DNA of 57,555 nt from a virus (taxonomy: Duplodnaviria > Caudoviricetes): positions 1 through 57,555 of IMG/VR virus record IMGVR_UViG_3300044251_000011. One strand, 5' to 3'. Shown piece by piece: positions 128-55,900 of the stretch. The notes under the pieces are model-generated. The model was not told the DNA's origin. It ran no database searches and was given only the letters and a program-made list of their open reading frames with translations. Every line of letters starts with the position of its first letter. Position 1 is the first letter of the stretch. The position numbers and the translations under genes are program-made.

Positions 128-212
128 TCAGCGCGACCGATCCTGACAGTTCAACGTCAACGGTCACGGTCACCCGTGACCCTCGGATCTCGTCCATCGT
201 CCTGACCCTCAT
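1..212 (-). CDS. 5' part of a ~102-aa hypothetical protein spanning the circular junction (continues 57428..57332)
   Basis: ATG at 212 after GGGGAGGT RBS; MRVRTMDEIRGSRVTVTVDVELSG...RDLLRSTTKTDH joins in frame to ORF 57332..57529. Confidence 0.75.
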   Translation of the reverse strand, partial: MRVRTMDEIRGSRVTVTVDVELSGSVALTEAEAERDLLRSTTKTDHDRIMALEATLAEVRRLVNRPPVDC

Positions 213-282
213 GTTGCGGACCTCCCCGTCCTAGTTGTACCAGGCGAGGGGACCGAAGTCCCCCCGCCCGGGTTGTGTTGCC

Positions 283-312
283 ACCTTACAGCCTTGCCTT
301 CCGGGTGCGCAA
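283..312 (-). promoter_or_regulatory. Sigma70-like promoter TTGCGC-N18-TAAGGT
   Basis: Same TAAGGT -10 box as the promoter family; upstream of the junction gene and primase-polymerase. Confidence 0.5.
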
Positions 313-314
313 GC

Positions 315-2125: not shown

Positions 2126-2467
2126 TCAGTCGGCGGTCTCGGGCTCCGGCTCGGCCAGCTTGGCCGGGTCCGGCGTGGGCCACAGGTCGGCCGTCTCGGT
2201 CACGACCTTGACCCACTCCACCACGCGGTTGTCGCGGGCCAGCCACTTGGCGACAGCGCCCCAGCCAGCGCCCTGGGGCGTGGAGCCCCCGCCGCTCACG
2301 TACCAGGTGCCCCCGGCCTTCAGCATCGTGTACGTGAACACCTTGGGCGTCGCACGGCCACGGGTCGTGTCGAGATCGGTCTGGCCCATCCCGGCGTAAC
2401 TGATGCCGAACAGCAGGACGGTCCCGTTCGGGACTCGGCTGTTGTCCAGCTCGAACTTGACAGGCAT
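2126..2467 (-). CDS. Hypothetical phage protein (paralog of 4700..5176)
   Basis: RBS and coding-like ORF; shares NGxVL..K..xWYVxG..WL pattern. Confidence 0.7.
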   Translation of the reverse strand: MPVKFELDNSRVPNGTVLLFGISYAGMGQTDLDTTRGRATPKVFTYTMLKAGGTWYVSGGGSTPQGAGWGAVAKWLARDNRVVEWVKVVTETADLWPTPDPAKLAEPEPETAD

Positions 2468-2544
2468 TCGTCAACCTTCCTGGGAACGGCCGGAGCCGCC
2501 CGGCCCCGAGGGACCGGACGGCTCCAGGTGCGTGGCGAGTCGGG

Positions 2545-3354: not shown

Positions 3355-3383
3355 ACCTTACAGGGTAGACGGCAAAGTGTCTA
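3355..3383 (-). promoter_or_regulatory. Promoter TAGACA-N17-TAAGGT with symmetric operator variant TAGAC-N8-GTCTA
   Basis: Spacing and -10 box match the family; palindrome at 3366-3383. Confidence 0.7.
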
Positions 3384-4508: not shown

Positions 4509-4696
4509 GGCTGGTTGACCTCCACGGTCACGGTGATCTCGGTCGGCCACGGGCCGGTCAGACCGGCCTCGCGGAGTTTGTCCTTCCGGACGTACAGGTT
4601 GGACACGGCCTGGCCCAGCCGGTCCGGCGCGGCGTACATGACCGCGCCCTTGGTCTCCTTGACGAACGGGAGCACCACGGCGACCTTGACACTCAT
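4505..4696 (-). CDS. Small hypothetical protein
   Basis: Translationally coupled ORF; start codon lies inside a TTGAC-N8-GTCAG palindrome. Confidence 0.7.
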   Translation of the reverse strand: MSVKVAVVLPFVKETKGAVMYAAPDRLGQAVSNLYVRKDKLREAGLTGPWPTEITVTVEVNQP

Positions 4697-4699
4697 CTG

Positions 4700-5176
4700 T
4701 CAGCCCCCGTAACCACGGCGGGTGGCCCGGAGGAACGGGTCCGCGTCGCCCCGGATGCCCTCCAGGAGAGCGCCCAGGTCGATGGCGCTGACCGAGGCCA
4801 CCTCCACGGACGCCAGCTCGAACTCCGCGAGCTGAGCGGCCATCTGGAGGCGGCGGCCCCCGGTGGTCAGCCAGTCGGCCAGGCCGTCCGAGCTGACCGC
4901 GTTCGGGGCGTTCTTGCCGGTGACGTACCAAAGGTCCCGGGTCTTGTACGCGATGAACGCGTACGGCTGGCTCCGGCCCAGGGTGACGGCCAGGCCCAGG
5001 ACGGACCCGTTCGCCAGCTCCCCGAAGTCGGGCAGCGCCGCCAGCTTCTCCAGCTCCTTGACCGCGCGGCTGGTACGGGCCTCGGTCTCGCGGTCGATCT
5101 CCTCCAGCGCCGCCAGGCGGTCCCGCTCGGCGGCTTCCAGCTCGCGCTCCAGCGCGGCCTTCCTGTTGCTGATCAT
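4700..5176 (-). CDS. Hypothetical protein, N-terminal coiled coil plus domain shared with 2126..2467
   Basis: Operon context; WYVTG..LADWL motif. Confidence 0.7.
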   Translation of the reverse strand: MISNRKAALERELEAAERDRLAALEEIDRETEARTSRAVKELEKLAALPDFGELANGSVLGLAVTLGRSQPYAFIAYKTRDLWYVTGKNAPNAVSSDGLADWLTTGGRRLQMAAQLAEFELASVEVASVSAIDLGALLEGIRGDADPFLRATRRGYGG

Positions 5177-6668: not shown

Positions 6669-6697
6669 ACATTACAGCCATGACTGTGACGTGTCAA
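6669..6697 (-). promoter_or_regulatory. Promoter TTGACA-N17-TAATGT with operator palindrome
   Basis: TTGACACGTCACAGTCAT. Confidence 0.8.
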
Positions 6698-6865: not shown

Positions 6866-8725
6866 TCAGGCGGCCGTGAACAGGCTCTCGCACGAGTCGC
6901 ACCGGACCACGCCCAGGTCGAGAACCTTCCGGCTCAACCGGATGATGATCGGCTCGGCGCACTCGCACGTGGCCTTGAGGTTGCCGCTCTTGGTCTCGCC
7001 CTCCTGGCCCTTGACCGGCTTGCCGGTGATCTTCTCTCCGCCGCGCTCGTCCTCGTCGTCCGAGCCGCCCAGCCAGAAGGGGAGGAGACCGGTCAGCTTC
7101 AGCTCGCGCTCCAGCTCGCCCAGGATCTCCGCGTACTTGACCTTGGTCGCCTCGGTCAGCGTGACGAACGAGAACCCGTGGGTCTTGTCGGGGTTCGCGC
7201 CCTTGTGCTCCAGGCCCAGCTCCTCGGCCGTCTTGCGGAACGTGCCGTTGTGGTACCGGTTCTGGCGGCTGGTGTCCTGGACGCCCCGGACCTTGCTCAG
7301 CGTGTGGGCCGCCTCGTGGATCGTGGTCTGGAGCACCTGGAGCGCGCCCTTTGCCAGGGCCTCGCTCGCCAGGAAGAACTCGTGAAGCTTCTCCCCGTCC
7401 TTGCCGAGCCTCCAGCTCTCCGGCCGGAAGTGCCCCCACTTGACGCCCTCGCCGGACCCGGTGGTCACCACGACCCGGGGGAGTTCCGGGTGTTCCGCCC
7501 GGATGGCGTCCCAGACCTTCTCGATCAGGATGACCACGGTGGAGCCGGTGTGGATCTCGGGCGCTGTTGCCGGTGCGGTCTCGGTCTGGGCGGTCATCTC
7601 GGGCTCCTCGGTGTCGTCCTCGCTGTTGAGACCAACCTTACCGTCTTGACTGTGAAGTGTCAACTCCTCCGCCTGGGAAGTTCCGGCCGGGCCGTAGATC
7701 CCGCCCGGGGCCTCGTTCGCCTCGCGGGCCGCCTCGGCGTCCGCCAGGTTCTCCCGCTCGCTCTGGGCCGCGTTCTCCTCCACCTGGGTCTCGGTCAGGG
7801 TGAAGCGCTCCGCGCCCTCCTCGGCCTCCTGGACCGGCTCGGCCGGGGTCTCGACCACGGGGGCCGGGGCCACGTAGACCGTCGTGTGGAGTTCGGTCGC
7901 GGTCTGGACCCGGACCGAGCCGCCCGGCGCGCTGGCGGCGGCCGTGGTCAGCGCCACCAGGGTCTTGGTCGGGGTGTTCTTCACGACCACTCCCCGGCGG
8001 AGTTCGCCCATCGCGTAGGCGTAGACCACGGTCCCGATCGGCTGGGCCTCGGTGGCCTGGACCCAGGTGCTCGGCTTCACTGCCGAGACGAGGGCGATCA
8101 GGTCGGCGGTCTCGCCGTTGCTCAGCGGGTAGTTCCGGGCCTCGGTGTGGGTCAGGTTCTGGGCCATCTCGATCTCCTCCGGTGCGTTGTCTTTGCTGTT
8201 AGGACTAACCTTACAGGCTTGACTGTGAAGTGTCAACGACTGGGCCGACTCAATTTCCAGGGCCTCGGCGTGGGCGTCGTCCAGCGCGCCGGAGGTCCGG
8301 AAGTCGGCGGCCAGCTCGGCCCGCTCGGCCGGGGTGAACTCCTCGGCGGCCGGGGCCGCCCCCGCCTCAACGGCGGGGGCAGCGGCGGCGGCCAGCTCGG
8401 CCCGGTGGGCGTCCTCGGCCACGGCCTCGGCGTACGCCCGCTTGATACCGGCCGGGTCCTCCGGGGCCAGCCACATGGTCTGGATCGGAGCCGCGTCGAA
8501 CGATCCGGCGCTGGTGTGGATCACGTACTTGCCCCGGGCCTCGTACCGGCCAGCGGCCCGGAAACCCTTCTCGATGATCCGGGCAACGAACACGCCCTCC
8601 CCGGTCTTGGTGCTGCTCGGGCGGATCGTGGCGTGGCCCTCAGCGTCGTACGAGACCTTGACGATGATCCGCATCCCGGCCTCGGCCTCGCTGGCGTTGA
8701 CCTTGCCCTTGGCGATGCTGCCCAT
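6866..8725 (-). CDS. Multi-module protein with C-terminal SprT-like zinc metallopeptidase and Zn ribbon; internal in-frame starts at 8167 and 7597
   Basis: HEAAH, RYHNGTF..AEELGL, CEC..CDSC; each of the three ATGs has its own promoter and RBS. Confidence 0.8.
   Translation of the reverse strand: MGSIAKGKVNASEAEAGMRIIVKVSYDAEGHATIRPSSTKTGEGVFVARIIEKGFRAAGRYEARGKYVIHTSAGSFDAAPIQTMWLAPEDPAGIKRAYAEAVAEDAHRAELAAAAAPAVEAGAAPAAEEFTPAERAELAADFRTSGALDDAHAEALEIESAQSLTLHSQACKVSPNSKDNAPEEIEMAQNLTHTEARNYPLSNGETADLIALVSAVKPSTWVQATEAQPIGTVVYAYAMGELRRGVVVKNTPTKTLVALTTAAASAPGGSVRVQTATELHTTVYVAPAPVVETPAEPVQEAEEGAERFTLTETQVEENAAQSERENLADAEAAREANEAPGGIYGPAGTSQAEELTLHSQDGKVGLNSEDDTEEPEMTAQTETAPATAPEIHTGSTVVILIEKVWDAIRAEHPELPRVVVTTGSGEGVKWGHFRPESWRLGKDGEKLHEFFLASEALAKGALQVLQTTIHEAAHTLSKVRGVQDTSRQNRYHNGTFRKTAEELGLEHKGANPDKTHGFSFVTLTEATKVKYAEILGELERELKLTGLLPFWLGGSDDEDERGGEKITGKPVKGQEGETKSGNLKATCECAEPIIIRLSRKVLDLGVVRCDSCESLFTAA
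7635..7663 (-). promoter_or_regulatory. Intragenic promoter/operator TTGACACTTCACAGTCAAGACGGTAAGGT
   Basis: TTGACA-N17-TAAGGT, then GAGGAG RBS and ATG 7597. Confidence 0.85.
8208..8236 (-). promoter_or_regulatory. Intragenic promoter/operator TTGACACTTCACAGTCAAGCCTGTAAGGT
   Basis: TTGACA-N17-TAAGGT, then GGAGGAG RBS and ATG 8167. Confidence 0.85.
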
Positions 8726-8768
8726 TTGAACCACTCCCTGGCGTGTCGTTGTCTTGCTGACATGGAGA

Positions 8769-8797
8769 ACATTACAGGCTTGACTGTGAAGTGTCAA
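8769..8797 (-). promoter_or_regulatory. Promoter/operator TTGACACTTCACAGTCAAGCCTGTAATGT
   Basis: Upstream of ATG 8725. Confidence 0.85.
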
Positions 8798-8833
8798 CGT
8801 CCTGTGGTCTACCTCACAGTGGTGCCTGTGAGG

Positions 8834-8862
8834 TTGACACTGCACTGTCACGCCTGTAAAGT
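8834..8862 (+). promoter_or_regulatory. Divergent promoter/operator TTGACA-N17-TAAAGT
   Basis: TTGACACTGCACTGTCACGCCTGTAAAGT. Confidence 0.8.
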
Positions 8863-8915
8863 CATGTGTATCAGGCGGGGCGCACGGTCCCGGGGAGCAG
8901 GAAGGCACAACGGAG

Positions 8916-9125
8916 ATGACGAACCAGAAGCGCGCGAACGGCAAGCTGATCCGGAAGATCGCCAAGCTGGACCGGGCCTGGAGGCTCGCGGGCAAGGCCG
9001 AGGGCCGGACCGCAAATGACCTGGGGATGTACCTGGGCCGCGCCTACCGGGCCGGGATGGGCACCACGGCGCGCCGGGCTCAGAGCCGGAGCGCGGCCCG
9101 CCTGGGCCAAGTCAGCGGCTGGTGA
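8916..9125 (+). CDS. Small basic hypothetical protein
   Basis: Promoter upstream and hairpin downstream. Confidence 0.65.
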   Translation: MTNQKRANGKLIRKIAKLDRAWRLAGKAEGRTANDLGMYLGRAYRAGMGTTARRAQSRSAARLGQVSGW

Positions 9126-9199: not shown

Positions 9200-9472
9200 T
9201 CAGCCCGCCACGGACGCCAGATCGGTCCGTGCACCCTGGCCGGGACGGCCTTCCCTCCAGGCGTCCAGCGCGGCGCGCGTGAACACCGGGAGGTTGTACT
9301 GGCCGTCCGCCTCGCGCTCGGGCTCGGCCTCGGGGCCGATGCCGCGCGCCACGTAGCTGGAGAGCGTGTTCCGCTTCAGGCCCAGATACTCGGCGGCCGG
9401 GCCGTAGCCCACGAACCGGTCCTGGCCCTCGGTCTCCTGGCTGTCCACGTTCTCACCTTCTCTCGTCGTCAT
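9200..9472 (-). CDS. AlpA/MerR-like helix-turn-helix DNA-binding protein
   Basis: AAEYLGLKRNTLSSYVARG..P.P, LDAW..RPGQGARTDL; leaderless promoter TTGTCA-N18-TATAGT-N6-ATG (9479-9508). Confidence 0.8.
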   Translation of the reverse strand: MTTREGENVDSQETEGQDRFVGYGPAAEYLGLKRNTLSSYVARGIGPEAEPEREADGQYNLPVFTRAALDAWREGRPGQGARTDLASVAG

Positions 9473-9533
9473 GGTCTGACTATACAGGCACGCCTTCCAG
9501 GCTGACAAGCGGGGAGATTTCTGGCCGCTGGCG

Positions 9534-9562
9534 TTGACACTTCACAGTCAAGCCTGTAAAGT
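9534..9562 (+). promoter_or_regulatory. Promoter/operator TTGACACTTCACAGTCAAGCCTGTAAAGT
   Basis: Family consensus. Confidence 0.85.
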
Positions 9563-10143: not shown

Positions 10144-10172
10144 TTGACACTTCACAGTCAAGGCTGTAACGT
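10144..10172 (+). promoter_or_regulatory. Promoter/operator TTGACA-N17-TAACGT facing antisense into the late operon
   Basis: TTGACACTTCACAGTCAAGGCTGTAACGT; no credible plus-strand gene follows. Confidence 0.7.
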
Positions 10173-10195
10173 AGTGGGCGGTGGAGAAGGTGCCG

Positions 10196-10462
10196 CTACT
10201 GGGGAGGCGGACAGTCCCGGTTCTGGCGGTAGTGGATCAGGGCCTCGCGGACCGCGCGGCTCCGGTCGCCGGACGGACCGGCCACCGGCTCGGGGCCGCC
10301 GAGGAACACCGAGGTCATGGCGCACATGTCCCGGTCCTGTTGCTTCTGGTTGCGCCAGACCCAGGCGGACAACAGCCCGGAGATCAGGAGCACGGCCAGG
10401 CCCCAGGAGAGCAGGATTTGCCAGACCGGCCGGGACATCGGCTGGGCGAGTGTGCGCCTCAT
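10196..10462 (-). CDS. Small membrane protein
   Basis: One TM segment, coupled to upstream gene. Confidence 0.65.
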   Translation of the reverse strand: MRRTLAQPMSRPVWQILLSWGLAVLLISGLLSAWVWRNQKQQDRDMCAMTSVFLGGPEPVAGPSGDRSRAVREALIHYRQNRDCPPPQ

Positions 10463-10731
10463 GCTGGGTCAGCTCCAGGGTCCGGCGCTGGCGACGTAGG
10501 CGACGAGGAGCCCGACAGCGCCGGTGGCCCCGATGGCCCCGACGAGAGACTGCCCGCGATATCTGGTCGTGAGAGCCAGAGCCGCAGAAAGCCCGGTCCG
10601 AGCATGGTCGCGCTGGAGATCATCATCAGCGGCCACGGCCCCGCCGTGAACACGATGTAGCTCCCCCACGCTCCTCCGAGCGCCAGGAAGAAGATATCCC
10701 GCTGGAGCGGGGGCAGTGCTCGCCTGGTCAC
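10459..10731 (-). CDS. Small two-TM membrane protein
   Basis: Two hydrophobic segments; GGAGG RBS; overlapping stop/start. Confidence 0.65.
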   Translation of the reverse strand: MTRRALPPLQRDIFFLALGGAWGSYIVFTAGPWPLMMISSATMLGPGFLRLWLSRPDIAGSLSSGPSGPPALSGSSSPTSPAPDPGADPA

Positions 10732-11471
10732 GCACCATTCCTACCTTCCTCCTCACGGAGTCGTCTCGCGGAGCGTACCCGGGACGGTCCCGACCGAAGC
10801 GGTCTACGCCGTGCCAGCATTGGATCAGTAAGGGCCTGGCCGGTCCAATTGATCTCCAGCGCCGAGCCCTCGTGGTGCCGCCGGGCCACCCGCTCCCGGG
10901 CCTTGTGCTTGGTCAGCGAGGGGATCGGGAGGTGGTCCACCAGGGACGGCCACGTGTACCAGACATCGTGGCCGCGCCGCTCGGCCCAGCCCGCCACCCG
11001 CATATCGTCCGGCACCCCGGCGCGCGTCTCGGCGTACTGGATCATGTCCCCGATCAGCTTGACGGGGAGCGCGATACAGACGCCCCACATCAGTTTCTGG
11101 CTCCGGACCCAGGTGGCCCCCGCCGTGTCGGCGGCGCGCGCCATCGCCTCCCAGCGGATCGGCACGTTGCGGCCGGTGCCCAGGTACGGCGAGACCACGG
11201 CGTCCGGCGGGACGAACGTCAGAGCGCGCTCCAGCCCGGCCAGGAGATCGGCGCACGGAACCGCGTCGTCCTGGATCAGGACGTGCCAGTCCGCGTCCGG
11301 GTCGGCCAGCTCCCAGGCCCGGCGCGCGGTCCGCCAGACTCGATCGCCGCTCCCCGAGGGCGGACCCTCGTCGTCCCAGCCGATCGCCACCGGCCGGTCC
11401 AGGGCGGCCATCAGCTCGCGCACCCGGTCCGCCCGGTCCGGGTGCGCCATGATGCTGGCGGAGAGTTTCAC
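10728..11471 (-). CDS. Glycosyltransferase (GT-A fold)
   Basis: IMAHPDR, WHVLIQDDA, DDMR, WPSLVDH. Confidence 0.7.
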   Translation of the reverse strand: MKLSASIMAHPDRADRVRELMAALDRPVAIGWDDEGPPSGSGDRVWRTARRAWELADPDADWHVLIQDDAVPCADLLAGLERALTFVPPDAVVSPYLGTGRNVPIRWEAMARAADTAGATWVRSQKLMWGVCIALPVKLIGDMIQYAETRAGVPDDMRVAGWAERRGHDVWYTWPSLVDHLPIPSLTKHKARERVARRHHEGSALEINWTGQALTDPMLARRRPLRSGPSRVRSARRLREEEGRNGA

Positions 11472-13300
11472 CGGCCGTCCGCGAGGGCCTGGAGGATCAG
11501 GTCCCGCTTGTCCTTGCGGACGCCCAGCACGATCCCCCGGTGCTTGGCGAGCGCCTTCAGCGTCGGGATCGACAGCTCGGAGATCGGCTGGCCCACGGTG
11601 GCCTCGACCACCAGGGCATCGTTCAGCCCGACCCGGGTCAGGTCCCCGTGGTGCCCGTTGCTTGACGTGTCACTGTCAAGCGCGGCGGCCGACTCTCGGA
11701 GAGCGGCCACGCCCTCGGGGTCCACGCGCTCCCACTCGGCCTCCAGCGTCGCCTTGTCCTCCGGCACCTCGGGACCGGCGGCCACCTGGCCGCCCACGGC
11801 CGGGTACGGGGAGGGGTGGACGCCCTCGCTCGTGATGGCGGTCGCCGTGCCGGTCGGCTTCAGCTTGGGCTCCTCGGTCGTCACCAGCCGGGTGACGGCC
11901 AGCCGGTCCGCGTGGATCTCGAACTCCTCCAGGAACCCCTCGGCCACCAGCTCCTCCAGCGCCTCGCGGACGCCGGGCCAGTCCGGGTGGTCCAGGTCGT
12001 CCACGGCGATGGTCGCGCCGGGGGCCAGGTGCGGAGCCCAGACCTCGATGTCCTGGCGCGCGCCCTCCTTGCTGTGGTCGCCGTCCACGAACAGGAGCCC
12101 GACCTGGCGGCCGGACCAGTCGGCGGCCACCTCGTGCGAGAAGGCGTGAACCAGGTCGATCTTGTCCTTGTACCCGAACGAGTCCACCCAGTAGGCGGCC
12201 CAGGTGCGCGAGTCGGCCTCGGTGAACGGCGGGCCGTACGTGTTGCCCGGGGCGTCCCACGCGTCGATGGCGGTCACGTGCGCGCTGTTGCCCAGCCCCG
12301 CACCCCAGGCGAGTTGCAGCGCGGTCCGGCCCTGGAACACGCCGATCTCCACGATCTCCTGGTCCGCCGGGACCTGGATCGCCAGATCGGCCAGGGTCAC
12401 CATCACATCGTCCGGCGTGGCCGCCCGGACGTTCTTGAACTGGATCGGCGGCCGGGGGCTCCGCTTCTCGGCCAGGCGGCGCGAGGTCGGGCCGGAGCGC
12501 TCCACGCGGCGCGGCGCGGAGCCAGCCACGCGCGGCCGGGCGGCCGGGCTCGGGGTGCTCGTCGGTTCGGTCACTTCAGGCCGTCCTCTCCGTAGGTGGC
12601 GGATCTCCGCCACGTCGGTCCGGAACACGTCGCCGTGTCGCCAGCTCTCGTACGCGCGCCGGTCCCGCTTGAACTGGTCCCGGTGGTTCACCCGCTGGTA
12701 CTGGGCGTCGGTCTCAGCCTTGCCCACGATCGGGTGCATGTGCTCCACCCGCACCTCGGGGAGGAAGCGGAGAGCACCGGCCGCGCCGAACATCTCCATG
12801 ATCGAGTTGTCGCAGTACATGTGCTCCACGTCGGCTGGGACCATCCGGCCCAGCGCGGCCACCACGTCCGAGGTCACGGCCCACTCGGTGCTGAGGTTCT
12901 TCCCCTGGTACCCGTCGTCGCTGTAGACCATCCCGCTCCCCAGCTCGCGGAGGACGGTCAGGTACCGCTCGGCCCAGCCGATCGTCCGGGGGAGGTGGTC
13001 GTCACCAGCGAACCCGAGGGCGAACCAGCCAGCGGCCAGCGCGGCGGCGGCCTCGTTCAGCTTGTGGACCATCGGGACGTGGTGGTCCACCTCGTACGTC
13101 TTGATCAGCGCGTCGCCGGTGTCCGGGTGCCGGGTCTCCTCGACCAGGGCCAGGTACCCGGGGTACTCCGGGTCGTCCTTGTCGATGACCAGCACCATGT
13201 CCGCGCGGTCCCAGGCGTTCGTGAAGTCCCAGGCGCTGATCACCTTGCGCACGTTGCCGGGGCGGCCCCGGGTCGGGATCAGGACAGCGAGATCACGCAT
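11468..13300 (-). CDS. GT2-like glycosyltransferase fused to class I SAM methyltransferase, with C-terminal Rho_N/HeH-like helix pair
   Basis: VLIPTRGRP, GDDHLPRT, HMYCDN, VEHMHP; VEIGVFQGRT, LLFVDGDHS, LAPGATIAVDD; SELSIPTLKALAK..GI. Confidence 0.8.
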   Translation of the reverse strand: MRDLAVLIPTRGRPGNVRKVISAWDFTNAWDRADMVLVIDKDDPEYPGYLALVEETRHPDTGDALIKTYEVDHHVPMVHKLNEAAAALAAGWFALGFAGDDHLPRTIGWAERYLTVLRELGSGMVYSDDGYQGKNLSTEWAVTSDVVAALGRMVPADVEHMYCDNSIMEMFGAAGALRFLPEVRVEHMHPIVGKAETDAQYQRVNHRDQFKRDRRAYESWRHGDVFRTDVAEIRHLRRGRPEVTEPTSTPSPAARPRVAGSAPRRVERSGPTSRRLAEKRSPRPPIQFKNVRAATPDDVMVTLADLAIQVPADQEIVEIGVFQGRTALQLAWGAGLGNSAHVTAIDAWDAPGNTYGPPFTEADSRTWAAYWVDSFGYKDKIDLVHAFSHEVAADWSGRQVGLLFVDGDHSKEGARQDIEVWAPHLAPGATIAVDDLDHPDWPGVREALEELVAEGFLEEFEIHADRLAVTRLVTTEEPKLKPTGTATAITSEGVHPSPYPAVGGQVAAGPEVPEDKATLEAEWERVDPEGVAALRESAAALDSDTSSNGHHGDLTRVGLNDALVVEATVGQPISELSIPTLKALAKHRGIVLGVRKDKRDLILQALADGR

Positions 13301-13949
13301 GGGCGCTCCAGGTGAAGTGAGGGCTGGCGAGCGCGGAGCGCTGGCCCGGGGTGATGGCGCGCGGCTTCTGCCAGCGCGTGCCGGTGCTGGTGAACAGGTA
13401 GTGGTACAGGATGTGCGGGATCACCACCTGGGTCTTGAGCACCTGGGCGCGGCGTAGCTGGGCGGCCCAGTTGCGGTCCTCGGCTCCGCCGGAGCGCGTG
13501 CGCGCGAAGTCGGCGCGGAGCGCGAGCTGGCGGCGGATCGGGTTGATGTGCGAGATGTCCCGCTCGTACCGGCCGGTGAGGTTGCGCCATTGGGTGAACT
13601 CCAGCGAGTGGTACGCCACGGCCACCGGCGCGCCGTCCGAGTAGCACTGGACCTGAAACCCCACGTAGTCCGGCTCGGTCTCCAGGGCGGCCACGATGCG
13701 ATCCACGTAGTCCGGGCTCACCAGGTCGTCATCGTCCACGAACGAGACGTAATCCGAGGCGGCCGTCTCCACCATCGTCTGGCGGATCTTGGGGAGGGGT
13801 GGACGCCCGTCATTGTGCCAGCCGACCACGCGCACGCGGCCTGCGTACGGGTCGAGCTGGGGCAGGAGCCCGGCCATCAGCCGCTCGAACAGCGGACGGC
13901 GCTCGCCCAGGGTCGGGACGAGGATCGTCCAAGAAGGCGCGGCTGTCAT
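13293..13949 (-). CDS. GT2-like glycosyltransferase
   Basis: TILVPTL, YVSFVDDDD, AEDRNW, LYHY. Confidence 0.82.
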   Translation of the reverse strand: MTAAPSWTILVPTLGERRPLFERLMAGLLPQLDPYAGRVRVVGWHNDGRPPLPKIRQTMVETAASDYVSFVDDDDLVSPDYVDRIVAALETEPDYVGFQVQCYSDGAPVAVAYHSLEFTQWRNLTGRYERDISHINPIRRQLALRADFARTRSGGAEDRNWAAQLRRAQVLKTQVVIPHILYHYLFTSTGTRWQKPRAITPGQRSALASPHFTWSAHA

Positions 13950-13978
13950 GTCCCCAGCGTACCGGATGAGGGGGCATC
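13950..13978 (-). promoter_or_regulatory. Putative late leaderless promoter GATGCCCCCT-N7-TACGCT-N6-ATG
   Basis: Same motif precedes TAC, DUF1360/portal and terminase genes. Confidence 0.65.
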
Positions 13979-13997
13979 CCGGCGGGGCGGTCCATGA

Positions 13998-14448: not shown

Positions 14449-14495
14449 GAATCCTCCTCGTGTTGACACTCCACAGTCATGATGACGGGTGCCAG

Positions 14496-29878: not shown

Positions 29879-29890
29879 GACACTCCACTG

Positions 29891-33348: not shown

Positions 33349-33377
33349 TTGACACTCCACAGTCATGGCTGTAATGT
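33349..33377 (+). promoter_or_regulatory. Promoter/operator TTGACA-N17-TAATGT
   Basis: TTGACACTCCACAGTCATGGCTGTAATGT. Confidence 0.85.
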
Positions 33378-35417: not shown

Positions 35418-35442
35418 CACTTCACAGTCAAGCCTGTAATGT
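35414..35442 (+). promoter_or_regulatory. Promoter/operator TTGACACTTCACAGTCAAGCCTGTAATGT
   Basis: Identical to the 8769-8797 copy. Confidence 0.85.
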
Positions 35443-40586: not shown

Positions 40587-40647
40587 GCGCCCATCCTACG
40601 GGCACAAGGGGGCATCTCGGCTCCAGCGTCCGCTTGACACTTCACAG

Positions 40648-40923
40648 TCAGTCCCTGAAGGTCCGCGCGCTGATGAACCGGCAGCGAGCCAGCGCGCCCT
40701 CGAACCGGCGGAGCGACGCCCGGTAGCCCAGCTCGGTCAAGGACCGGCCGAACGCGTTCTGGGTGACCGGGATCAGCCCGGCCTCGCGCGCCATCGCCGC
40801 GTACCAGTCGTACAGCTCGGCGCTCGGGTACCAGCCAGGGCCGCGCCCCATGTCCTCGACCACCGCGCGGAGGTTGGCCTGGGTCAGCCCGGCCACCTGG
40901 GCCGTGGGCTTCAGCTCGGTCAC
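40648..40923 (-). CDS. Stand-alone winged-helix protein (D5/P4-primase C-terminal-like)
   Basis: SAELYDWY...TQNAFGRSLTELGY. Confidence 0.65.
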   Translation of the reverse strand: MTELKPTAQVAGLTQANLRAVVEDMGRGPGWYPSAELYDWYAAMAREAGLIPVTQNAFGRSLTELGYRASLRRFEGALARCRFISARTFRD

Positions 40924-41950: not shown

Positions 41951-42362
41951 GGCACTCGCTCCAGTCGCCAGCGAGCACCCGGGGGCAATGCTCGGCACAG
42001 TGGGTCCGGATCTTCTCGTCGTCGTAGTCCAGCCGCTCCGAGCACGCGCACACCGGGTGCGTCTCGCGGTTGTAGCCACAGCCAGCCCAGCCGGTGATCG
42101 TGCCGGTCTCGGCCGAGCCCATCGGCGCGAACGAGATCCGGGCCTCGCAATACCGGCCGCCCCCGACGAACGGGTGGTCCCGCATCGCTTGGCGCATGAT
42201 CCGCGCGCCACGGTCGGCCGCCTCCTCGCGCTCGGCCGGAGAGCTACCCATCAGCGGGTGACCGTCATCTGTCAACCGCCGGGTGTGCCAGCCGTCCGGC
42301 TCCCCCTCCCGGCGGGCCAGGCCGTCCTCGCTCGGCGGCCACATCCCGATCTGGTCGATCAT
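41940..42362 (-). CDS. Hypothetical Cys-rich protein
   Basis: GAGGAGG RBS; coupled to HNH gene. Confidence 0.6.
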   Translation of the reverse strand: MIDQIGMWPPSEDGLARREGEPDGWHTRRLTDDGHPLMGSSPAEREEAADRGARIMRQAMRDHPFVGGGRYCEARISFAPMGSAETGTITGWAGCGYNRETHPVCACSERLDYDDEKIRTHCAEHCPRVLAGDWSECRGC

Positions 42363-43517: not shown

Positions 43518-43615
43518 GTGCTCCACCTTACCGTCATCACTGCGAGGTGTCAACCGAGAAGGCGGCCCGAGCGAACCCGAGCCGCCTTGTCAGTGCAATG
43601 TCAAGACTGTGAGGT

Positions 43616-45308: not shown

Positions 45309-45381
45309 AGCTGGACACTTCCCCGTCACTACTGTAAGGTTGTACGTAGTGGCGGGGAGGTCCCGCTCAGAGGAGGGGACA

Positions 45382-45837: not shown

Positions 45838-45866
45838 TTGACACTTCACCGTCACGCCTGTAAAGT
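45838..45866 (+). promoter_or_regulatory. Promoter/operator TTGACA-N17-TAAAGT
   Basis: TTGACACTTCACCGTCACGCCTGTAAAGT. Confidence 0.85.
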
Positions 45867-45911
45867 AAGTCGTGTCAGGGGGAACGGCCCCCGGACGGGG
45901 AGGAGATCGAG

Positions 45912-47575: not shown

Positions 47576-47761
47576 TCAGCGCTTACTCCGCCTGGTGCGG
47601 GCCGCCTTCCGCGCCATGCGCGAGCGCTGGGCGTGGCTCTCGCCAGCGTTGGCGATGCGGGCCGCCTTGCTCTTGCTCATGCCCTTGCGCCTCAGCGCCC
47701 GGTACACGTTGTGGCGGCCCGGGGTCACGTACCCCTTGCGGCCACCGGCTGATGACACCAT
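47576..47761 (-). CDS. Small basic protein
   Basis: VYRALRRKGMSKSKAARIANA; GGAGGAGGT RBS. Confidence 0.7.
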   Translation of the reverse strand: MVSSAGGRKGYVTPGRHNVYRALRRKGMSKSKAARIANAGESHAQRSRMARKAARTRRSKR

Positions 47762-47819
47762 GCCGACCACCTCCTCCCCTACCGTACCCAGTCGCCTTGA
47801 CTGTGAAGTGTCAACGGCG

Positions 47820-48851: not shown

Positions 48852-48883
48852 GGGTTAGACCTTACCGCCAGGACTGCAAGGTG

Positions 48884-50362
48884 TCAACTCAGCGGGGAGA
48901 GTCCCGTGGTCGGGAGCGCGCCGACCGGCTCCACGAACCCAGCGCCGGAGCCGCCCTTGTGGCGGTCCGCCCACATCGCCATAGCGATGGCGTCCCCCCG
49001 GTCCGGCGAGCGGCCCAGCCGCTCCACCACCTTGTCCTTGGGCTCCACCTTGATCTTGGGCGGGACGCCGGTGTCCACGCCCCAGCGCGGGGTGGTCAGG
49101 TCCGAGATCATGAGGTCGTTCGGGGGGAGCGCCAGGGTCGGCTCGAACGCCGGGTCCAGCAGCTCGCGGAGGTTCCAGTACGCGGCCGACCGGGTGTTGG
49201 TGAACCCGAACTTGCCGGACCGGTCCCGGGTGTGCGCCTTGCCCGAGCCGGTGTACGCCAGCGGCCGAGCGCCCAGCTCGCGGAGCCGGTCGAACACACC
49301 GGCCCCGAGGCCGATCACGTCGATGATGGCGCGGCCTTCCCGGCCCTGGACCATGCCCACGGTCGCCATCGTGTCGCGCCGCCGGTTGCCTTCCAGGGTG
49401 ATGGCCCAGCCGTCGCGCGCCGCCAGGACCGTCTCGTCCCCGCCCCGGCCCACGTCCACGCCGGTCCAGAGCGGCCCGCCCGGGGAGGGTCGGCCAGCCC
49501 GGTCCCACTCGTGCCACCTCTCGATCGCCGCCTCCAGCCAGGCCAGCGGGATCACGCTGTCCTCGTCGCTGGCGTGGAACTCGCCCAGTACGCGGTTGTG
49601 GTAGACCGCGCTGTCCGCTCCCCACTGGACGCGCCGTTGGTCGGCCCAGGACCGCGAGATCCGGCCGGACTCGATGGCTTCCTCCAGCGTGACGTGTCGG
49701 GTCCACCAGTCCTCGAACCCGGGTGCGCGCCGGTGGATCTCGTAGAACCGGCCGGACGGCGGGCCGGGCGTGCTCATGGCGAACGCGTAGGCGTTGTCCG
49801 CTGTGTCGGGACCGGCGTTCGAGAACGCGCCCTCGATCGAGTCCCAGGTGGCCGGGGGCACGATCTTTGCCTCGTCAAGGAGATACAGCAGCTCCTCGGC
49901 GTGCGCGCCCTCGATCCGCTCGGGCTGGTTGCTCGCCACGGCCGTGGCCGCGCCGTACTGAAGCTTCAGCCGGAGGTCCAACAGCTCGCTGTTCGGCTTG
50001 TACGGCGCGCGGCCCAGGGTCTCGAAGTCGATCCGGCCCGCCCACTTGTGGATCTCCGGCCAGAGGTAGACCTCCAGGTGACGCCAGGCGGACGCCGTGG
50101 TGATGATCTTCCAGTCCTTGCCCATCAGGTCCCGGGTCGTGGCGAACCAGTTCACCAGCACCGCGCCCATGAACGACTTCCCCAGGCCGTGAGGGCCACG
50201 CACGGCAACCCGGTGCTGGACGGGGAGTGCGTCCAACACCTCGCCCTGGTAGCCCGCCAGATCGACAGCGAGGCAGTCTCGCGCCCAGGTCACCGGCGAG
50301 TTCTTCCAGCGGTCGAGCCGGGTCCGCGCCAGGTACTTGGTCGCCAGGTCCACGGTCGTCAT
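48884..50362 (-). CDS. terL: Terminase large subunit
   Basis: RGPHGLGKS Walker A, LYLLDEA Walker B, STP, RVLGEF, GVDVGRGGDE, SPDRGDA. Confidence 0.93.
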   Translation of the reverse strand: MTTVDLATKYLARTRLDRWKNSPVTWARDCLAVDLAGYQGEVLDALPVQHRVAVRGPHGLGKSFMGAVLVNWFATTRDLMGKDWKIITTASAWRHLEVYLWPEIHKWAGRIDFETLGRAPYKPNSELLDLRLKLQYGAATAVASNQPERIEGAHAEELLYLLDEAKIVPPATWDSIEGAFSNAGPDTADNAYAFAMSTPGPPSGRFYEIHRRAPGFEDWWTRHVTLEEAIESGRISRSWADQRRVQWGADSAVYHNRVLGEFHASDEDSVIPLAWLEAAIERWHEWDRAGRPSPGGPLWTGVDVGRGGDETVLAARDGWAITLEGNRRRDTMATVGMVQGREGRAIIDVIGLGAGVFDRLRELGARPLAYTGSGKAHTRDRSGKFGFTNTRSAAYWNLRELLDPAFEPTLALPPNDLMISDLTTPRWGVDTGVPPKIKVEPKDKVVERLGRSPDRGDAIAMAMWADRHKGGSGAGFVEPVGALPTTGLSPLS

Positions 50363-51227: not shown

Positions 51228-51399
51228 GGTGTCATCCTAATCTGAGACCAGGGGGCATCCCACCTCGGAGCCGTGACAGTGAAGTGTCACCCCTCGGACG
51301 CACCAGCGCCCGGCCAGGGGACGGGGAGGTCAACCTGGCCGGGCGCTGGGCGGGGCGGCCCCAGATCCCGGGACGGGGCCGCGCGTGGGGCGTGACTGA

Positions 51400-52242: not shown

Positions 52243-52320
52243 CAGTTCGGTTTCCTTCCGGTTGCGGACAGATCAGGTACGAGGCGGAACCTTACAGCTA
52301 TCACGGGGAGGTGGTCAAGC

Positions 52321-52932
52321 CTACGCGGGTGCCCATCCGTACGAGCACGCGCCGACCCGGTACCAGCGCTCGGCCGTGATCTCCTGGTTGACCGGGAACT
52401 CCACGGCCTCGCCGGGGGCGAGCGTGACGCTCTTGGAGAACTTCAGCGCCGCCTCCCCCGTCACCGGCCACTGGACCCAGACCTGGCCGGTCTGAGGCTT
52501 GGTGCTGGTGTTCGTCGCGGTCACCGTGGCGACCAGGCCGTACTCCCCGATGATCTTCTTTTCGCACGTGCCGGTGGTCGTCACGCTCGCGCCGACCGGC
52601 ACGGTGATGGCCGGGACCGGCCCGCTCTTGTCGGTCAGGCCGAGCACCACCGCGCCGGAGCACAGGATGAACAGCCCGCCCAGCACGATCGAGACCCAGG
52701 CCCACGCGGGCATCCCCTTGCGCTTCTCGCCCGGGGTCAGCCATCCGTGCTGGACGCCCAGATCCTGGTGGACCTGGCTGTCCCACGGCGGGCGGCCGGG
52801 GCTGTGCCACGGGATCTCGTCGTCCGGCGGGGGGACCTCCTCCGCCCGGTATCCGTGCGCCGCCAGGGTCTCGGGCCAGCTCACGCTCGCCTTGCCGGGG
52901 TGGAACGTCGCCTCGCGCTTGTGGTCGGTCAT
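52321..52932 (-). CDS. Single-pass membrane protein with beta-rich extracellular domain
   Basis: Start MTDHKRE; KRKGMPAWAWVSIVLGGLFILC TM. Confidence 0.7.
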   Translation of the reverse strand: MTDHKREATFHPGKASVSWPETLAAHGYRAEEVPPPDDEIPWHSPGRPPWDSQVHQDLGVQHGWLTPGEKRKGMPAWAWVSIVLGGLFILCSGAVVLGLTDKSGPVPAITVPVGASVTTTGTCEKKIIGEYGLVATVTATNTSTKPQTGQVWVQWPVTGEAALKFSKSVTLAPGEAVEFPVNQEITAERWYRVGACSYGWAPA

Positions 52933-52997
52933 CGTCTCGCCTCTCGGTGTCAGGTTCTCCGGGGCCGCGCCGGTCGGCGCGGCCCCCTCCGTCGTGC

Positions 52998-55900
52998 CTA
53001 CTTCTCGTAGCAACGGGACCAGTCGGTCCCGGTCTTGCTCACGTCCGCCAGGATGGGCACCCCGCGCCACTCGAAACTCAGCGCCTCGACCACGGCCCGG
53101 CCGACCTCCTCCGCCTCGGCCACCGGCACCGAGAACACGATCTCGTCGTGGATCTGGGCGCGCAGCATGGGGAGGATGCGCCGGTCCAGGCGGAGGAGCC
53201 CGGTCATCATGATGTCGCGTGCCGCCCCCTGGCCCATCAGCGCCGGACCCTGGGTGTGGGCGCGCTGGGGGTCGGCCCGCATCATCCGGCCGAACCCGTT
53301 GTCCAGGAGCTGGCCGCTCTCGGCCACGGCCCGTACCTCGGTCTGCCACTCGACCAGCCGGGGGAACTTCTCCCGCATCGAGAGGTCGAACTGGCGGACC
53401 AGCTCGGGCGCGATGTCCTCGCCCTCGCTGATGGCCCGGATGCCCCGGCCGTAGTTCCAGCCGTGACCGATGGGCTTGGCGATCTCGCGCTTACTGCGGT
53501 CCCCGAACAGCTCCTCCGCGATCTCGGCGTGGGGGTCCTCGGACTTCAACATCTCGATGTACGCGAGATCCTGGGACAGCCCGGCCACGGCCCGCATATC
53601 GACCTGGCTCAGGTCGGCGGACACCAGCACCTCGCCGGGGTCGGGCAGGAACACGGCCCGCTCCACGTGGCGGCCCCCGCGCTTGCCGAACACGGTCAGC
53701 CCCGGGCGGGTGACGGACCACCGGCCAGTCGCCTGGTCGAACCCGATCTTGGGGTGGACCCGGCCGTCCGGACCCATGTGATCCATCGCGGTCTGGTAGA
53801 CCGAGCGCGCGCCCACGATCCGGTGGACGTGCATGGCGATCTCCTGGACCCGCGCGAGGTGGCCGAACTCGGCCCAGAGGTGGGCCATGTGGTCGCCGGA
53901 CACCTGGAACTCGCCGGTGGGCGTCCGCCAGAAGAACCCGGGGGACACCCCGGCCTCGGCCAGCGCGATCTCCAGCGCCTCCTTGCCGCCCTTGGTCGCC
54001 AGCGGCGAGGCGTACGCCTTGCCCTTGGGGTCGGCCAGCGGGACACCGGCGTTCTCGGCCAGCCAGCCCACGCTCGTGGCCTTGCTCTCGTTGACCTGGG
54101 TCACCCGCTCGGTGAGGAGCGGCTGGTCCACCAGGAACCCGTTGTGGCGGATCTGGGCGGCCAGGGCGGCCACCCGGTGCTCGCGGGCCAGGTAGTCCGG
54201 CACCGTCCCGCCCAGGCCCTCCAGGAGCCGCGCGTGGAGCCGCCTCGACAGCTCCACGTCCTGGACCATGTAGGTCTGGAAGCTGGTCGCGTCGGCGGCC
54301 CGCTCCTCGTCGGGGTCGGCCAGGTCCACCGGGATCTCACCCCAGCCGCCGTACTTCTTGGCGAGCGGCTTGGACAGATCGGTGTACTTCTCCCCGAGGC
54401 CCTGGCTCACGGCCAGCGTGCCCAGGTCGTACTTGCGCTTCTGGTCCACGCCGTGCTCGCGGGCCATCGGCGGGTCCAGGAACCGGGCGGCCAGCAGGCC
54501 ATCGAACAGGCGGCCGTCCTGGGCCAGGTCGTGAACCTCGTCCATCGTCATGGCCCCGGCCCGCACCAAGGCGGGGAGGTCGAACGCCACGATGTTGTGG
54601 CCGGTGATCGTCGCGCCCTGGCGGATACGGGCGGCCACGTCCTCGGCCACCGTGGAGCCGCCGAGCGCCAGCACCTCGCGGCCGTCGTGGGCCACCGCGC
54701 CGATCCGGACGTACTCCCGGCCCGGGGTCGTGTAGAGGTCGTCCGCGTCGCCGGTCTCCAGGTCGAACGTCGCCGTGTCCACAGCCTCGTCCACAGGCTG
54801 TGGACCCACGGCGGGCTCGGCCAGCTCGCGGTCTGCCACCTGGCTGTCTGCCTCCTCGCCGGTTGACACCTCAGTGTCAACCACGTCCGCCCCGCCGTGG
54901 CACTCGCTGGAGTGGCAGTACACCCGCTCGTCACGCGGGCACCGGCACACGTCGTCCGGGCCGTCCTGGGGCTCCTGGGGCTCGGTGCCGGGGGCCGGGG
55001 GAAGATCCTCGCCGGACTGGAACACGCGCCAGATCGAGACGTGGCCGTGCGCGCCGCCGGACCGCTCCACCCAGAACTCGCCGTACCGGCGGCCCCGGAG
55101 CCGGGAGTACGCCTCGCCCAGGTTCTTGCCGTAGCTCTTGTCCGTGGGGTCGTCCAGCTTGGGGGGAGCGAGGAACCCGGCCGGGTCGGCCATCGCTCGC
55201 GCCTTCACCTCGGCCGTACGGAACGGCTCCTCCCCGAACGTGGCCCGGAGCCAGCCGAGGTGGCCCGCCCAATACTGGGTGTCGAAGTCGCTCTCCGAGC
55301 GCCACACCTTCAGGTTGTCCAGGAACCCGGTCAGCCCGGCCACCTCGATGATCCCGCCCACGATCCGCTCCCAGACCTCGAACGAGCCGAACGAGACGCC
55401 CCGCTTGGGCCGGGGCTGGCCCTGGGCGAACCAGGCTCGGACCAAGGTCAGGATGGCGGTCATCAGCTCGGCCCGGTGCTTACGGGTCCAGCTCCCCAGG
55501 TCGAGCCCGGACTGGCCGGGGTGCCGGAAGGTCTCGGCCTTGCGGTCCTGCGGGTTGGCGTACGGCGGCCGGAGCGCGATCTGGTAGACGCGCCGGGTCA
55601 GGTCGCCCTTGACTTGGACCTGGTTGCCGAGCGAGATCCAGGTGATGACGTTCGGGAAGTTCGCCATCGTGGAGACGCCCAGGATGCGGTCCTGCCAGGT
55701 GCTCGCCGTGAGGGCCTGGGCCAGCGGCGCGCCCTCGATCGTGTGCGCCTCATCGAACACGAAGAACTCCGCGCCGGTGCGGAACGCGGCCGTGATCTGC
55801 TTGCGGAGTTCGTCCGGATCGGGAACCCAGTTCATCGGCTCGGCGGCCGTGCCCGTGTAGACCGTGAGGATCTGGTCCGCCAGGAGGTTCTTCCCCACGC

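Follow-up and report, generated by a model that had tools for sequence, protein, structure and literature searches.

A few groups of actinophages are known to carry operator-like repeats dispersed along the genome. What these repeats do is unsolved outside Cluster A, and the palindromes of the Cluster O mycobacteriophages have stood unexplained since 2015. Here we describe such an array in IMG/VR virus record IMGVR_UViG_3300044251_000011, a tailed soil phage whose complete record of 57,555 bp, including a 127-bp terminal repeat, is called the window below. The element is an 18-bp palindrome, TGAC-N8-GTCA with one further base on either side, and it occurs 29 times. Ten copies are built into predicted promoters; the other 19 have no −10 box and lie inside genes (10 copies) or at gene edges and between genes (9 copies). 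We argue that these copies may form an operator network served by a phage protein.

Dispersed repeats in other systems

Each Cluster O genome carries over 30 copies of a 17-bp palindrome, TGTTCGGNNNCCGAACA, which the Cluster O study reports in 34 copies in phage Corndog, with invariant arms and a free centre, in both intergenic and intragenic positions and absent from the hosts; the same account notes genes for an O-methyltransferase and two glycosyltransferases (PMC4351075). Only 4 of the 34 copies are near promoters (PMC4351075), whereas in the window 10 of the 29 copies supply both the −35 box and the spacer of a promoter, and further copies stand next to late promoters. The two arrays are alike in kind only: in both, tens of dyads with invariant arms and a free centre stand at gene starts, between genes and inside genes, are conserved in place and are absent from the hosts. 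A cluster of methyltransferase and glycosyltransferase genes is also common to both phage groups; in the window, genes for a glycosyltransferase, a 610-amino-acid methyltransferase-domain protein and a second transferase follow the tail genes (10728–13949, minus strand). The palindromes differ in sequence and in geometry, which is 7-N3-7 in Cluster O and 4(6)-N8(6)-4(6) here.

The stoperator of phage L5 is an asymmetric 13-bp site containing a −35-like TGTCAA. It is bound by a monomeric two-domain repressor, is oriented with transcription and lies mostly in short intergenic gaps, in phages that are temperate and encode an integrase. About 25–35 copies of this one repressor site are spread across Cluster A genomes such as L5, and genome-wide silencing has been proposed for them (PMC9283540). 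The window array resembles this system in its genome-wide spread and in having copies that overlap a −35 box, which in L5 is that of an early lytic promoter. Its site is, by contrast, a two-fold symmetric dyad, and it shows no orientation bias (of the non-promoter copies with a clear inner asymmetry, three are sense, at 20297, 47797 and 51273, and four antisense, at 14463, 18009, 29877 and 40634). Half of its copies outside promoters are intragenic. There is also no sign of a temperate lifestyle: as an earlier note on this DNA had stated, no integrase is visible, with no match to the tyrosine integrase (PF00589) or serine recombinase (PF00239) families in six frames of the window (no sequence search was aimed at a gp71-like repressor). 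The differences in symmetry, orientation and lifestyle mean that this is not an L5-type stoperator system.

One regulator acting on many dispersed operators, some of them remote from promoters, is familiar from the phiC31 inverted repeats, P1 C1, RK2 KorB and phi29 p4; p4 turns early promoters off and a late promoter on from a few sites in one control region. phiC31, P1 and RK2 differ from the window in being temperate phages or plasmids with known repressors or ParB-family proteins, of which no homologues were found in the window. A six-frame search of the window for the ParB domain (PF02195) gave no match, and there is thus no indication of ParB/KorB-type partition. The comparisons with L5 and phiC31 made in the earlier note are fair as analogies but not as membership.

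Two further systems offer comparisons for a possible binder. RacA of Bacillus subtilis reads its site, ram, with a small MerR-like winged-helix domain, and ram is a palindrome with outer TGAC...GTCA; its terminal TG/CA steps are described as specific contacts, and its 25 dispersed sites serve chromosome anchoring and remodelling (PMC4914108). The ram site is a GC-rich 14-bp TGAC-N6-GTCA clustered near the bacterial chromosome origin, where the phage site has N8, and RacA has a long C-terminal oligomerisation domain or coiled coil, where the 90-amino-acid phage protein has only a short C-terminal tail (PMC4914108). Gp36 of D29, compared here by description, is a small MerR-type protein from a lytic actinophage and represses both early and late genes that lie downstream of its sites; it differs in acting on GC-rich direct repeats at few places, with no genome-wide dyad array described (PMC12266134). 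What is new in the window and its relatives is the combination of a dyad fused to a consensus promoter, intragenic copies that require rare codons, even spacing, and relatives that have lost the network together with one module.

The palindrome in the window and its relatives

The window is collinear with Actinoplanes phage phiAsp2 (NC_005885, 58,638 bp), in reverse orientation and permuted, with a nucleotide identity of about 81% (over 12 kb), and 66 of the 76 phiAsp2 proteins have a window homologue by tblastn. The GenBank record of phiAsp2 annotates ribosome-binding sites and “translational coupling” but neither promoters nor repeats. No earlier description of the repeat was found in the literature searched; the original phiAsp2 papers (Jarling et al. 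2004) lie outside that search and may contain one.

The 29 copies compare with a mean of 0.84 and a maximum of 3 in 100 dinucleotide shuffles of the window, and no copy is counted twice because of the terminal repeat. Ten palindromes lie wholly inside the 68 called genes, against a mean of 0.14 and a maximum of 2 in 300 synonymous-codon shuffles. The earlier note had listed 29 copies by the start of the 18-mer, one base before TGAC, had estimated that fewer than one would arise by chance, and had proposed a codon-preserving shuffle as a check; its count, all of its coordinates and its estimate are correct, and the enrichment is upheld by the shuffle. The arm spacing is N8 at every window site, and other spacings were not enriched in scans for the top palindromes. 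Sites that depart from the eight fixed bases by one mismatch show no excess (18 found, about 24 expected), although this background could hide a few real degenerate sites.

The network is carried by 14 phages of the family, with 8–36 palindromes each. phiAsp2 has 36 copies; ten IMG/VR relatives (41.9–63.3 kb) have 16–32 each, against 0–1 matches to a reversed control pattern; and two further, more distant relatives have 23 and 8. The commonest 18-mer occurs exactly in 55 IMG/VR stretches and in 3 of 185,579 prokaryote species genomes (one genome per species). None of the three is actinobacterial, and the palindrome is therefore not a host element. Gordonia phage Catfish, which encodes a distant homologue of the candidate binder, has one site in 46.9 kb. 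Three relatives, G011, G014 and G015, are poor in dyads, and all three are without the early/replication module represented by the pas43, pas49, pas50, pas51 and pas55 homologues (genes are named here after phiAsp2). Loss of the dyads where this module is absent indicates that the network travels with it. Either the binder would be encoded in the module, or the sites would matter only together with the promoters described next.

Some relatives carry repeats of their own. The more distant G012 (L128/L180-L183) has 11 copies of CATCCTAGGA, several of them in tandem upstream of its pas39 homologue, besides its 23 dyads, and other relatives have different ones, such as CAGGTTGGCC, present 12 times in L137.

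Predicted promoters that contain the palindrome

The ten promoter copies share the form TTGACAC-ttcaca-GTCA(a/t/c)-g.c.g-TAAnGT, in which a spacer of 17 bp separates a consensus −35 hexamer from a −10 box of the type TAnnnT. These class 1 promoters are 29-bp conserved, sigma-70-like elements in which the dyad spans the −35 box and the first 12 bases of the spacer. A co-oriented start codon with its Shine-Dalgarno sequence lies 65–84 nt downstream of nine of the ten, and the tenth, at 10144, points antisense into the end of the late operon. They fit the description of a sigma-70 (HrdB)-type promoter, a TTGACA-like −35 box, a spacer of 16–18 bp and a TAnnnT −10 box upstream of a co-oriented gene, and are predicted to act as such; a separate promoter scan also finds the elements at 8834 and 9534. 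The earlier note had spoken of about ten copies supplying TTGACA-N17-TAAnGT, and the number is exactly 10 of 29.

A search of 12 genomes of the family for TTGAC-N18-TA[AT]NGT, in which GTCA was not required, returned 133 matches. The right half-site GTCA is present at spacer positions 14–17 in 96 of them and missing from 37, and all 133 agree at spacer positions 14, 21 and 23. The 37 matches without the right half-site are coherent among themselves and make up a second class, TTGACACCTTGCAGT..TGACGGTAAGGT. Promoters of this class 2 share the −35 and −10 boxes of class 1 but lack its right half-site, and in the window they head the helicase gene and two other operons. This class accounts for part of a set of divergent palindromes listed in the earlier note: those at 2063, 43536 and 48870 are class 2 promoters, those at 3366 and 45312 are promoters with a variant −35 box, and the one at 43587 has a poor −10 box.

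A third promoter type consists of (A/G)GATGCCCCCT, a gap of 9–10 nt, TAnnnT and, 6–7 nt further on, the start codon. The short distance from TAnnnT to the start codon implies leaderless late transcripts, and the shared motif implies a putative dedicated late activator. The dyads at 40634 and 51273 stand just upstream of this late-type motif, at a distance of 22–26 nt. Copies had previously been placed beside late promoters at four positions; this holds for three or four sites, including 40634, 51273 and 33251 at the capsid promoter. The late-type element also occurs, reverse-complemented, ahead of the divergent pas26 homologue.

Several features accompany the class 1 promoters. Many of them, in the window (45867–45900) and in relatives, have a GGGGG-N3-5-CCCCC hairpin in the 5′ leader within about 10 nt of the −10 box, for example gtcagggggaacggcccccgg. 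Between the convergent pas37 and pas36 homologues (10144–10200, plus strand) the class 1 promoter is followed by a conserved predicted transcript start, AGTGGRCGGTGGAGAAGG, common to phiAsp2, G005, G006 and G008, and the transcript may be an antisense or small RNA. In phiAsp2, identical class 1 promoter copies enclose pas38 (L001:32694-33069) on both sides; only one such copy, at 9534, and no pas38 are present in the window, as recombination between promoter repeats predicts. The pas41, pas42 and pas43 homologues of the window (6866–8995, minus strand) lie in one open frame of 709–726 codons that runs across two internal class 1 promoters, whereas pas41–pas43 of phiAsp2 are three separate genes in different frames. 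The long frame could be due to chance at 70% G+C or could encode nested isoforms, as the earlier note proposed.

Selection on the palindrome outside promoters

The copies outside promoters show the symmetry of the site and do not keep the promoter-specific centre. Across 203 such copies from the 12 genomes, whose G+C content is about 70%, the symmetrised half-site is T-TGAC-A-n-T, with T before the fixed bases in 63%, A after them in 62% and T two further on in 68%. The fuller form of the site is TTGACAnT-N2-AnTGTCAA. In blastn alignments that span sites, arm bases are 93.0% identical to the window, against 78.3% for the centre and 76.0% for the flanks, a difference that may be inflated for promoter copies, where identical repeats can seed paralogous alignments.

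The third codon positions of the ten intragenic sites give a more direct measure. Arms are identical at 230 of 274 such positions (84%), flanks at 3278 of 5162 (63.5%) and centres at 93 of 143 (65%); the gap between arms and flanks is about seven standard errors, ignoring the relatedness of the genomes. All nine intragenic sites tested lie in the same frame, xxT-GAC-NNN-NNN-NNG-TCA, and encode (Val/Leu/Ile/Pro)-Asp-x-x-x-Ser. This frame calls for rare codons: TCA makes up 22 of the 957 serine codons in the genome, at least nine of those 22 lying within dyads, and the T-ending codons of Val, Leu, Ile and Pro have frequencies of 2.6–4.2%. At aligned orthologous intragenic positions, the exact dyad is present in 59 of 95 cases from the 13 other network-bearing genomes and in 0 of 16 from the three network-poor relatives. 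The latter often keep the peptide with common codons, as in the V-D-E-Q-L-S of the pas6 homologue, which has no dyad. These data support selection on the palindrome at the DNA level, consistent with a dimeric binder, and suggest that the 19 copies outside promoters are functional DNA rather than debris. Positions of all copies are given in Table 1; among them, the two that had been placed on start codons, 2457 and 4686, are indeed on those of the pas51 and pas48 homologues.

A candidate binding protein

Among 50 window proteins scanned against Pfam, ten of them also against PHROGs, the product of 9200–9472 is the only one with a clear DNA-binding match. It matches phrog_597, “DNA binding protein” (3e-18), and phrog_66, “excisionase and transcriptional regulator” (4e-6), and PF12728 is precomputed on many of its homologues. 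The protein is 97% identical to Pas39 of phiAsp2 and is present in all 17 genomes compared. Its helix-turn-helix, RNTLSSY.ARG.GP, and its C-terminal RPGQGARTDL are invariant in the first 12 genomes, and an alignment of 41 sequences has 30 invariant columns. An AlphaFold2 model shows a winged helix, with helices at residues 23–30 and 34–43 and strands at 50–56 and 59–65, regions in which the predicted local distance difference test score (pLDDT) is 84–86. In a profile comparison only the RdfS excisionase matches, at E = 0.048. The gene has its own promoter, and the palindrome at 9534 ends 25 nt upstream of the −35 box of this divergent promoter. Relatives found through the pas39-like protein that keep the helix RNTLSSY have 8–36 dyads, G011 excepted; in two whose helix differs the counts are 1 and 2. 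When relatives at a greater distance were scanned de novo for k-mers and palindromes, other repeats turned up, but no clean switch of dyad paired with a changed helix.

Several points weigh against this protein as the binder. The match of the window protein itself to HTH_17 (PF12728), at 6.7e-5 and 23.5 bits, is below the gathering score of 27. The mean pLDDT of the model is only 70, and its nearest solved folds are weak matches (E ≥ 0.03): the RdfS and Pukovnik excisionases, the MerR-type HiNmlR, BldC and RacA. Xis-like proteins often bind direct repeats as monomers. In G011 the protein is 70% identical with the same helix, yet that phage has only three dyads in 55 kb, none of them at orthologous late-gene positions. 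Having this protein is therefore not enough to keep the network, and the true binder could be encoded in the early/replication module. That the 9200–9472 protein reads TGAC-N8-GTCA is thus a weak and tentative assignment, which we hold at clearly less than even odds.

Other candidates fared less well. Of the two helix-turn-helix proteins named in the earlier note, that at 9200 is the better one; that at 25516 is a poor one, since its helix is invariant in three relatives without the network. This pas26 homologue (25516–25959) has a weak HTH_23 match (3e-3), and its helix RTARRW is the same in 17 of 17 genomes. It is a 147-amino-acid protein encoded on the plus strand, against the flow of the tail operon, from a leaderless promoter, with a C-terminal helix-turn-helix (FWGVHYRTARRW) that is invariant in the 17 genomes; by way of speculation, it might be a late-gene regulator serving the late promoters. 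The pas43, pas50 and pas51 homologues occur in every one of the 14 network-bearing genomes and in none of the 3 network-poor ones, a pattern confounded by the swap of the whole module. None of the three was retained: the pas43 homologue (6866–7597, minus strand) gives a SprT-like lead only and no DNA-binding fold; the pas50 homologue has no family match and no DNA-binding fold; and the pas51 homologue has no family match, no DNA-binding fold and a model (pLDDT 81) for which the PDB offers no meaningful neighbour (best E = 0.42). An HEAAH metalloprotease motif (HExxH) and a C-terminal Cys-x-Cys...Cys-x-x-Cys ribbon are seen in the pas43 homologue, whose atlas neighbours are partly SprT-like. 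Directly downstream of the 18-mer at 47797, the window encodes a very basic 64-amino-acid DUF7218 protein (47576–47770, minus strand), which is kept in 14 of 16 other genomes, network-poor ones included.

Table 1. Predicted promoters, palindromes and the candidate binder in the window
Feature	Position	Strand	Context
Class 1 promoter	6669–6697	−	TTGACACGTCACAGTCAT-ggctg-TAATGT; palindrome 6680–6697; upstream of pas44 homologue
Class 1 promoter	7635–7663	−	Consensus 18-mer 7646–7663; upstream of pas43 homologue (start 7597)
Class 1 promoter	8208–8236	−	Consensus 18-mer 8219–8236; upstream of pas42 homologue (start 8167)
Class 1 promoter	8769–8797	−	Consensus 18-mer 8780–8797; upstream of pas41 homologue (start 8725)
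Class 1 promoter	8834–8862	+	Divergent from promoter at 8797; upstream of pas40 homologue (ATG 8916)
Class 1 promoter	9534–9562	+	Consensus 18-mer; upstream of pas37 homologue (9614)
Class 1 promoter	10144–10172	+	Consensus 18-mer; antisense into 3′ end of pas36 homologue/late operon; position kept in phiAsp2 and three relatives
Class 1 promoter	33349–33377	+	Upstream of pas13 homologue (likely ATG 33422)
Class 1 promoter	35414–35442	+	Consensus 18-mer; upstream of pas9 homologue (35498)
Class 1 promoter	45838–45866	+	Upstream of open reading frame of 88 amino acids (ATG 45912)
Class 2 promoter	2052–2080	−	TTGACACCTTGCAGTTGTGACGGTAAGGT, no right half-site; upstream of helicase gene (pas53 homologue)
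Class 2 promoter	43525–43553	−	Upstream of pas73 homologue
Class 2 promoter	48859–48887	−	Downstream of terminase gene, upstream of pas62 homologue
Promoter variant	3355–3383	−	TAGACA at −35; own dyad TAGAC-N8-GTCTA
Promoter variant	45312–45340	+	TGGACA at −35
Late-type promoter motifs	51250–51260, 40607–40617, 27896–27906, 25489–25499, 13969–13979	−	Before small terminase, pas3/portal, pas22, pas27 and pas33 homologues
Candidate binder, Xis/MerR-like winged-helix protein of 90 amino acids (pas39 homologue)	9200–9472	−	Profiles, conservation, model
Own promoter of pas39 homologue	9479–9508	−	TTGTCA-18-TATAGT; leaderless (ATG 9472, 6 nt after −10); no palindrome
Non-promoter palindrome	143–160		Uncalled stretch before end of helicase gene
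Non-promoter palindrome	2457–2474		Centred on ATG of pas51 homologue; same place in 5 relatives
Non-promoter palindrome	4686–4703		On start of pas48 homologue and end of pas47 homologue
Intragenic palindrome	11662–11679		Methyltransferase-domain gene (pas34 homologue); frame L-D-S-D-T-S
Palindrome	14463–14480		Between pas31 and pas32 homologues
Intragenic palindrome	15454–15471		pas30 homologue; I-D-S-D-P-S
Intragenic palindrome	15961–15978		pas30 homologue; L-D-G-S-V-S; kept in 9/12 aligned network-bearing relatives
Intragenic palindrome	18009–18026		pas29 homologue; V-D-C-E-V-S; kept in 9/10 aligned relatives
Intragenic palindrome	20297–20314		pas28 homologue; P-D-I-S-L-S
Intragenic palindrome	25350–25367		77 nt into pas27 homologue; L-D-R-A-L-S; ~150 nt upstream of divergent pas26 homologue
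Intragenic palindrome	26326–26343		pas25 homologue; L-D-L-V-T-S; arms kept in 11/13 relatives, centre varies
Palindrome	29877–29894		At stop of major tail protein gene (pas16 homologue)
Palindrome	33251–33268		At ~+1 (about 6 nt after extended −10, gGTGCTAGGAT) of major capsid gene promoter; kept in 9/11 genomes with the gene
Intragenic palindrome	37790–37807		pas6 homologue; V-D-I-V-L-S; kept in 11/12 aligned network-bearing and 0/3 network-poor relatives
Palindrome	40634–40651		16 nt upstream of late-type promoter of pas3 homologue and portal operon
Intragenic palindrome	42258–42275		pas76 homologue; kept in none of three aligning relatives
Palindrome	47797–47814		Consensus 18-mer between pas63 and pas64 homologues; no −10 box
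Palindrome	51273–51290		Just upstream of late-type leaderless small-terminase promoter; kept in 5 relatives
Intragenic palindrome	54863–54880		Polymerase gene (pas55 homologue); V-D-T-E-V-S; kept in 1/10 relatives

An operator model and its alternatives

The arrangement of the sites suggests a model in which TGAC-N8-GTCA is the operator of a single phage protein, sequence-specific and two-fold symmetric, that is made during infection. On a class 1 site this protein would cover the −35 box together with the adjacent 12 of the 17 spacer bases and so would exclude host RNA polymerase. The class 1 promoters, which serve the small-gene cluster pas37–pas44 and reversed gene cassettes, would then be switched off together, and the class 2 promoters, with the same hexamers and no right arm, would escape control. 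The other 19 sites would be auxiliary, acting as roadblocks, as looping partners, as a reservoir or buffer of free protein, or as architectural anchors. The likeliest binder would be the 9200–9472 winged-helix protein, made from its own palindrome-free leaderless promoter. From the sequence comparisons, we put the probability of a network of operators for a phage protein, with a transcriptional effect at class 1 promoters, at roughly 0.55. The earlier note had envisaged one dimeric protein coating the whole genome, as a global switch or a genome-organising system. A real, symmetric, genome-wide motif under selection at the DNA level, doubling as −35 box and spacer, survives from that proposal; the coat does not, since sites some 2–3 kb apart are discrete.

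The distribution of the sites sits less easily with this model. Nineteen of the 29 are outside promoters and 10 are in genes, which is more than a plain repressor needs, and a transcriptional role was considered unlikely by the Cluster O authors, whose sites are similarly distributed (PMC4351075). The sites are also more evenly spaced than random: the coefficient of variation of the gaps in the window is 0.62 for all 29 sites (P = 0.004) and 0.53 for the 19 non-promoter sites (P = 0.002), and for non-promoter sites it is 0.43–0.75 in all 12 genomes, with P < 0.05 in 8 of them, although these genomes share ancestry and are not independent and two incomplete ones were treated as circles. Even spacing fits an architectural role at least as well as a regulatory one. 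The array might consist of regular docking points, used by a protein to compact, bridge, anchor or segregate the genome much as RacA acts at ram and KorB/ParB at theirs, with promoter overlap being secondary. Sites in late genes are kept despite their codon cost, as docking points might be. RacA offers a precedent, as a MerR-like winged helix that is reported to bind the palindrome TGACGCCGGCGTCA at 25 chromosomal regions (PMC4914108). A RacA–DNA complex also appears, at rank 13 (E = 0.24), in the list of weak fold matches to the candidate. Against this, one third of the sites keep an exact phase with promoter elements, something that anchoring would not require, the window has no ParB domain, and G011 has the candidate protein but not the array. 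An anchoring array is unlikely as the main explanation, but it can coexist with the operator model.

In a broader form of the operator model, the dyad array would both silence and organise the entire genome in a phage family without integrases: a small phage protein would shut the class 1 promoters and, by way of regularly spaced sites that rare codons encode within late genes, keep the episome quiet and compact. A carrier state or pseudolysogeny of Actinoplanes phages is attributed to Jarling et al. 2004 in later accounts (PMC3094311, PMC3971406). The 120 listed pas39-like homologues, of 340 found, are all on contigs of at most about 61 kb, so that no prophage copies are seen among the matches listed. 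We regard this broader form as unlikely. If it were true, the silencing array would be the molecular basis of the Actinoplanes-phage carrier state, a stoperator-like immunity evolved independently, with a symmetric site and no integration.

The sites might instead be read by a host protein, either region 4 of the principal sigma factor, in either direction, or a host regulator, so that the array recruits or titrates the host transcription machinery. The half-site T-TGAC-A equals the −35 consensus, the class 1 promoters are near-consensus for the host polymerase, and the site has so far been tied to no phage protein. However, the network vanishes with the early module in G011, G014 and G015 despite shared structural genes and presumably similar hosts, and the exact 18-mer is absent from the actinobacteria among the 185,579 species genomes. 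The strict N8 spacing, moreover, favours a preformed dimer over two independent sigma contacts. A host reader is accordingly improbable.

Two further explanations are very improbable. In the first, the non-promoter copies would be functionless remains or precursors of mobile promoter cassettes spread by repeat recombination, as might be suggested by the promoter repeats that flank the pas38 cassette difference between phiAsp2 and the window, by the full promoter-type 16-mer in some intragenic sites, such as 18009, and by the insertions and deletions between such repeats reported in the Cluster O study (PMC4351075). This explanation is largely refuted by third-position conservation, which is confined to the arms (centre 65%, flanks 64%), by the symmetric logo of the non-promoter sites, and by their single frame and rare codons at orthologous positions in conserved proteins across 13 genomes; it also predicts many one-mismatch copies, and none are found above background. 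In the second, the dyad would be a target or decoy of a DNA-modifying or restriction-type enzyme, its 4-N8-4 form being like that of Type I sites, with eight invariant arm bases, a free centre in non-promoter sites and a methyltransferase-domain gene at 11471–13300, or else an RNA hairpin; but phages deplete restriction targets, which here would be 35-fold enriched, the methyltransferase gene stands amid glycosyltransferase genes, as in the virion-glycosylation cluster of Cluster O, and is kept in the three network-poor relatives, and, for a hairpin, inner positions pair in only 25–54% of the 203 sites, both orientations are represented among the sites, and a search of the window gave no match to an Rfam family.

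Significance

This family offers a cleaner test case for dispersed phage palindromes. A dyad set in a near-consensus promoter provides a regulatory read-out, and a dyad set in conserved proteins at a measurable codon cost makes selection on the DNA evident. Some relatives serve as natural “knock-outs” that keep the proteins and not the sites, and a cultured member, phiAsp2, exists together with its non-pathogenic host, Actinoplanes sp. SN223/29. Identifying the binder would reveal how a phage that does not integrate times or silences its genes, and could also yield a compact, tight repressor–operator pair with strong promoters for the engineering of high-G+C actinomycetes.

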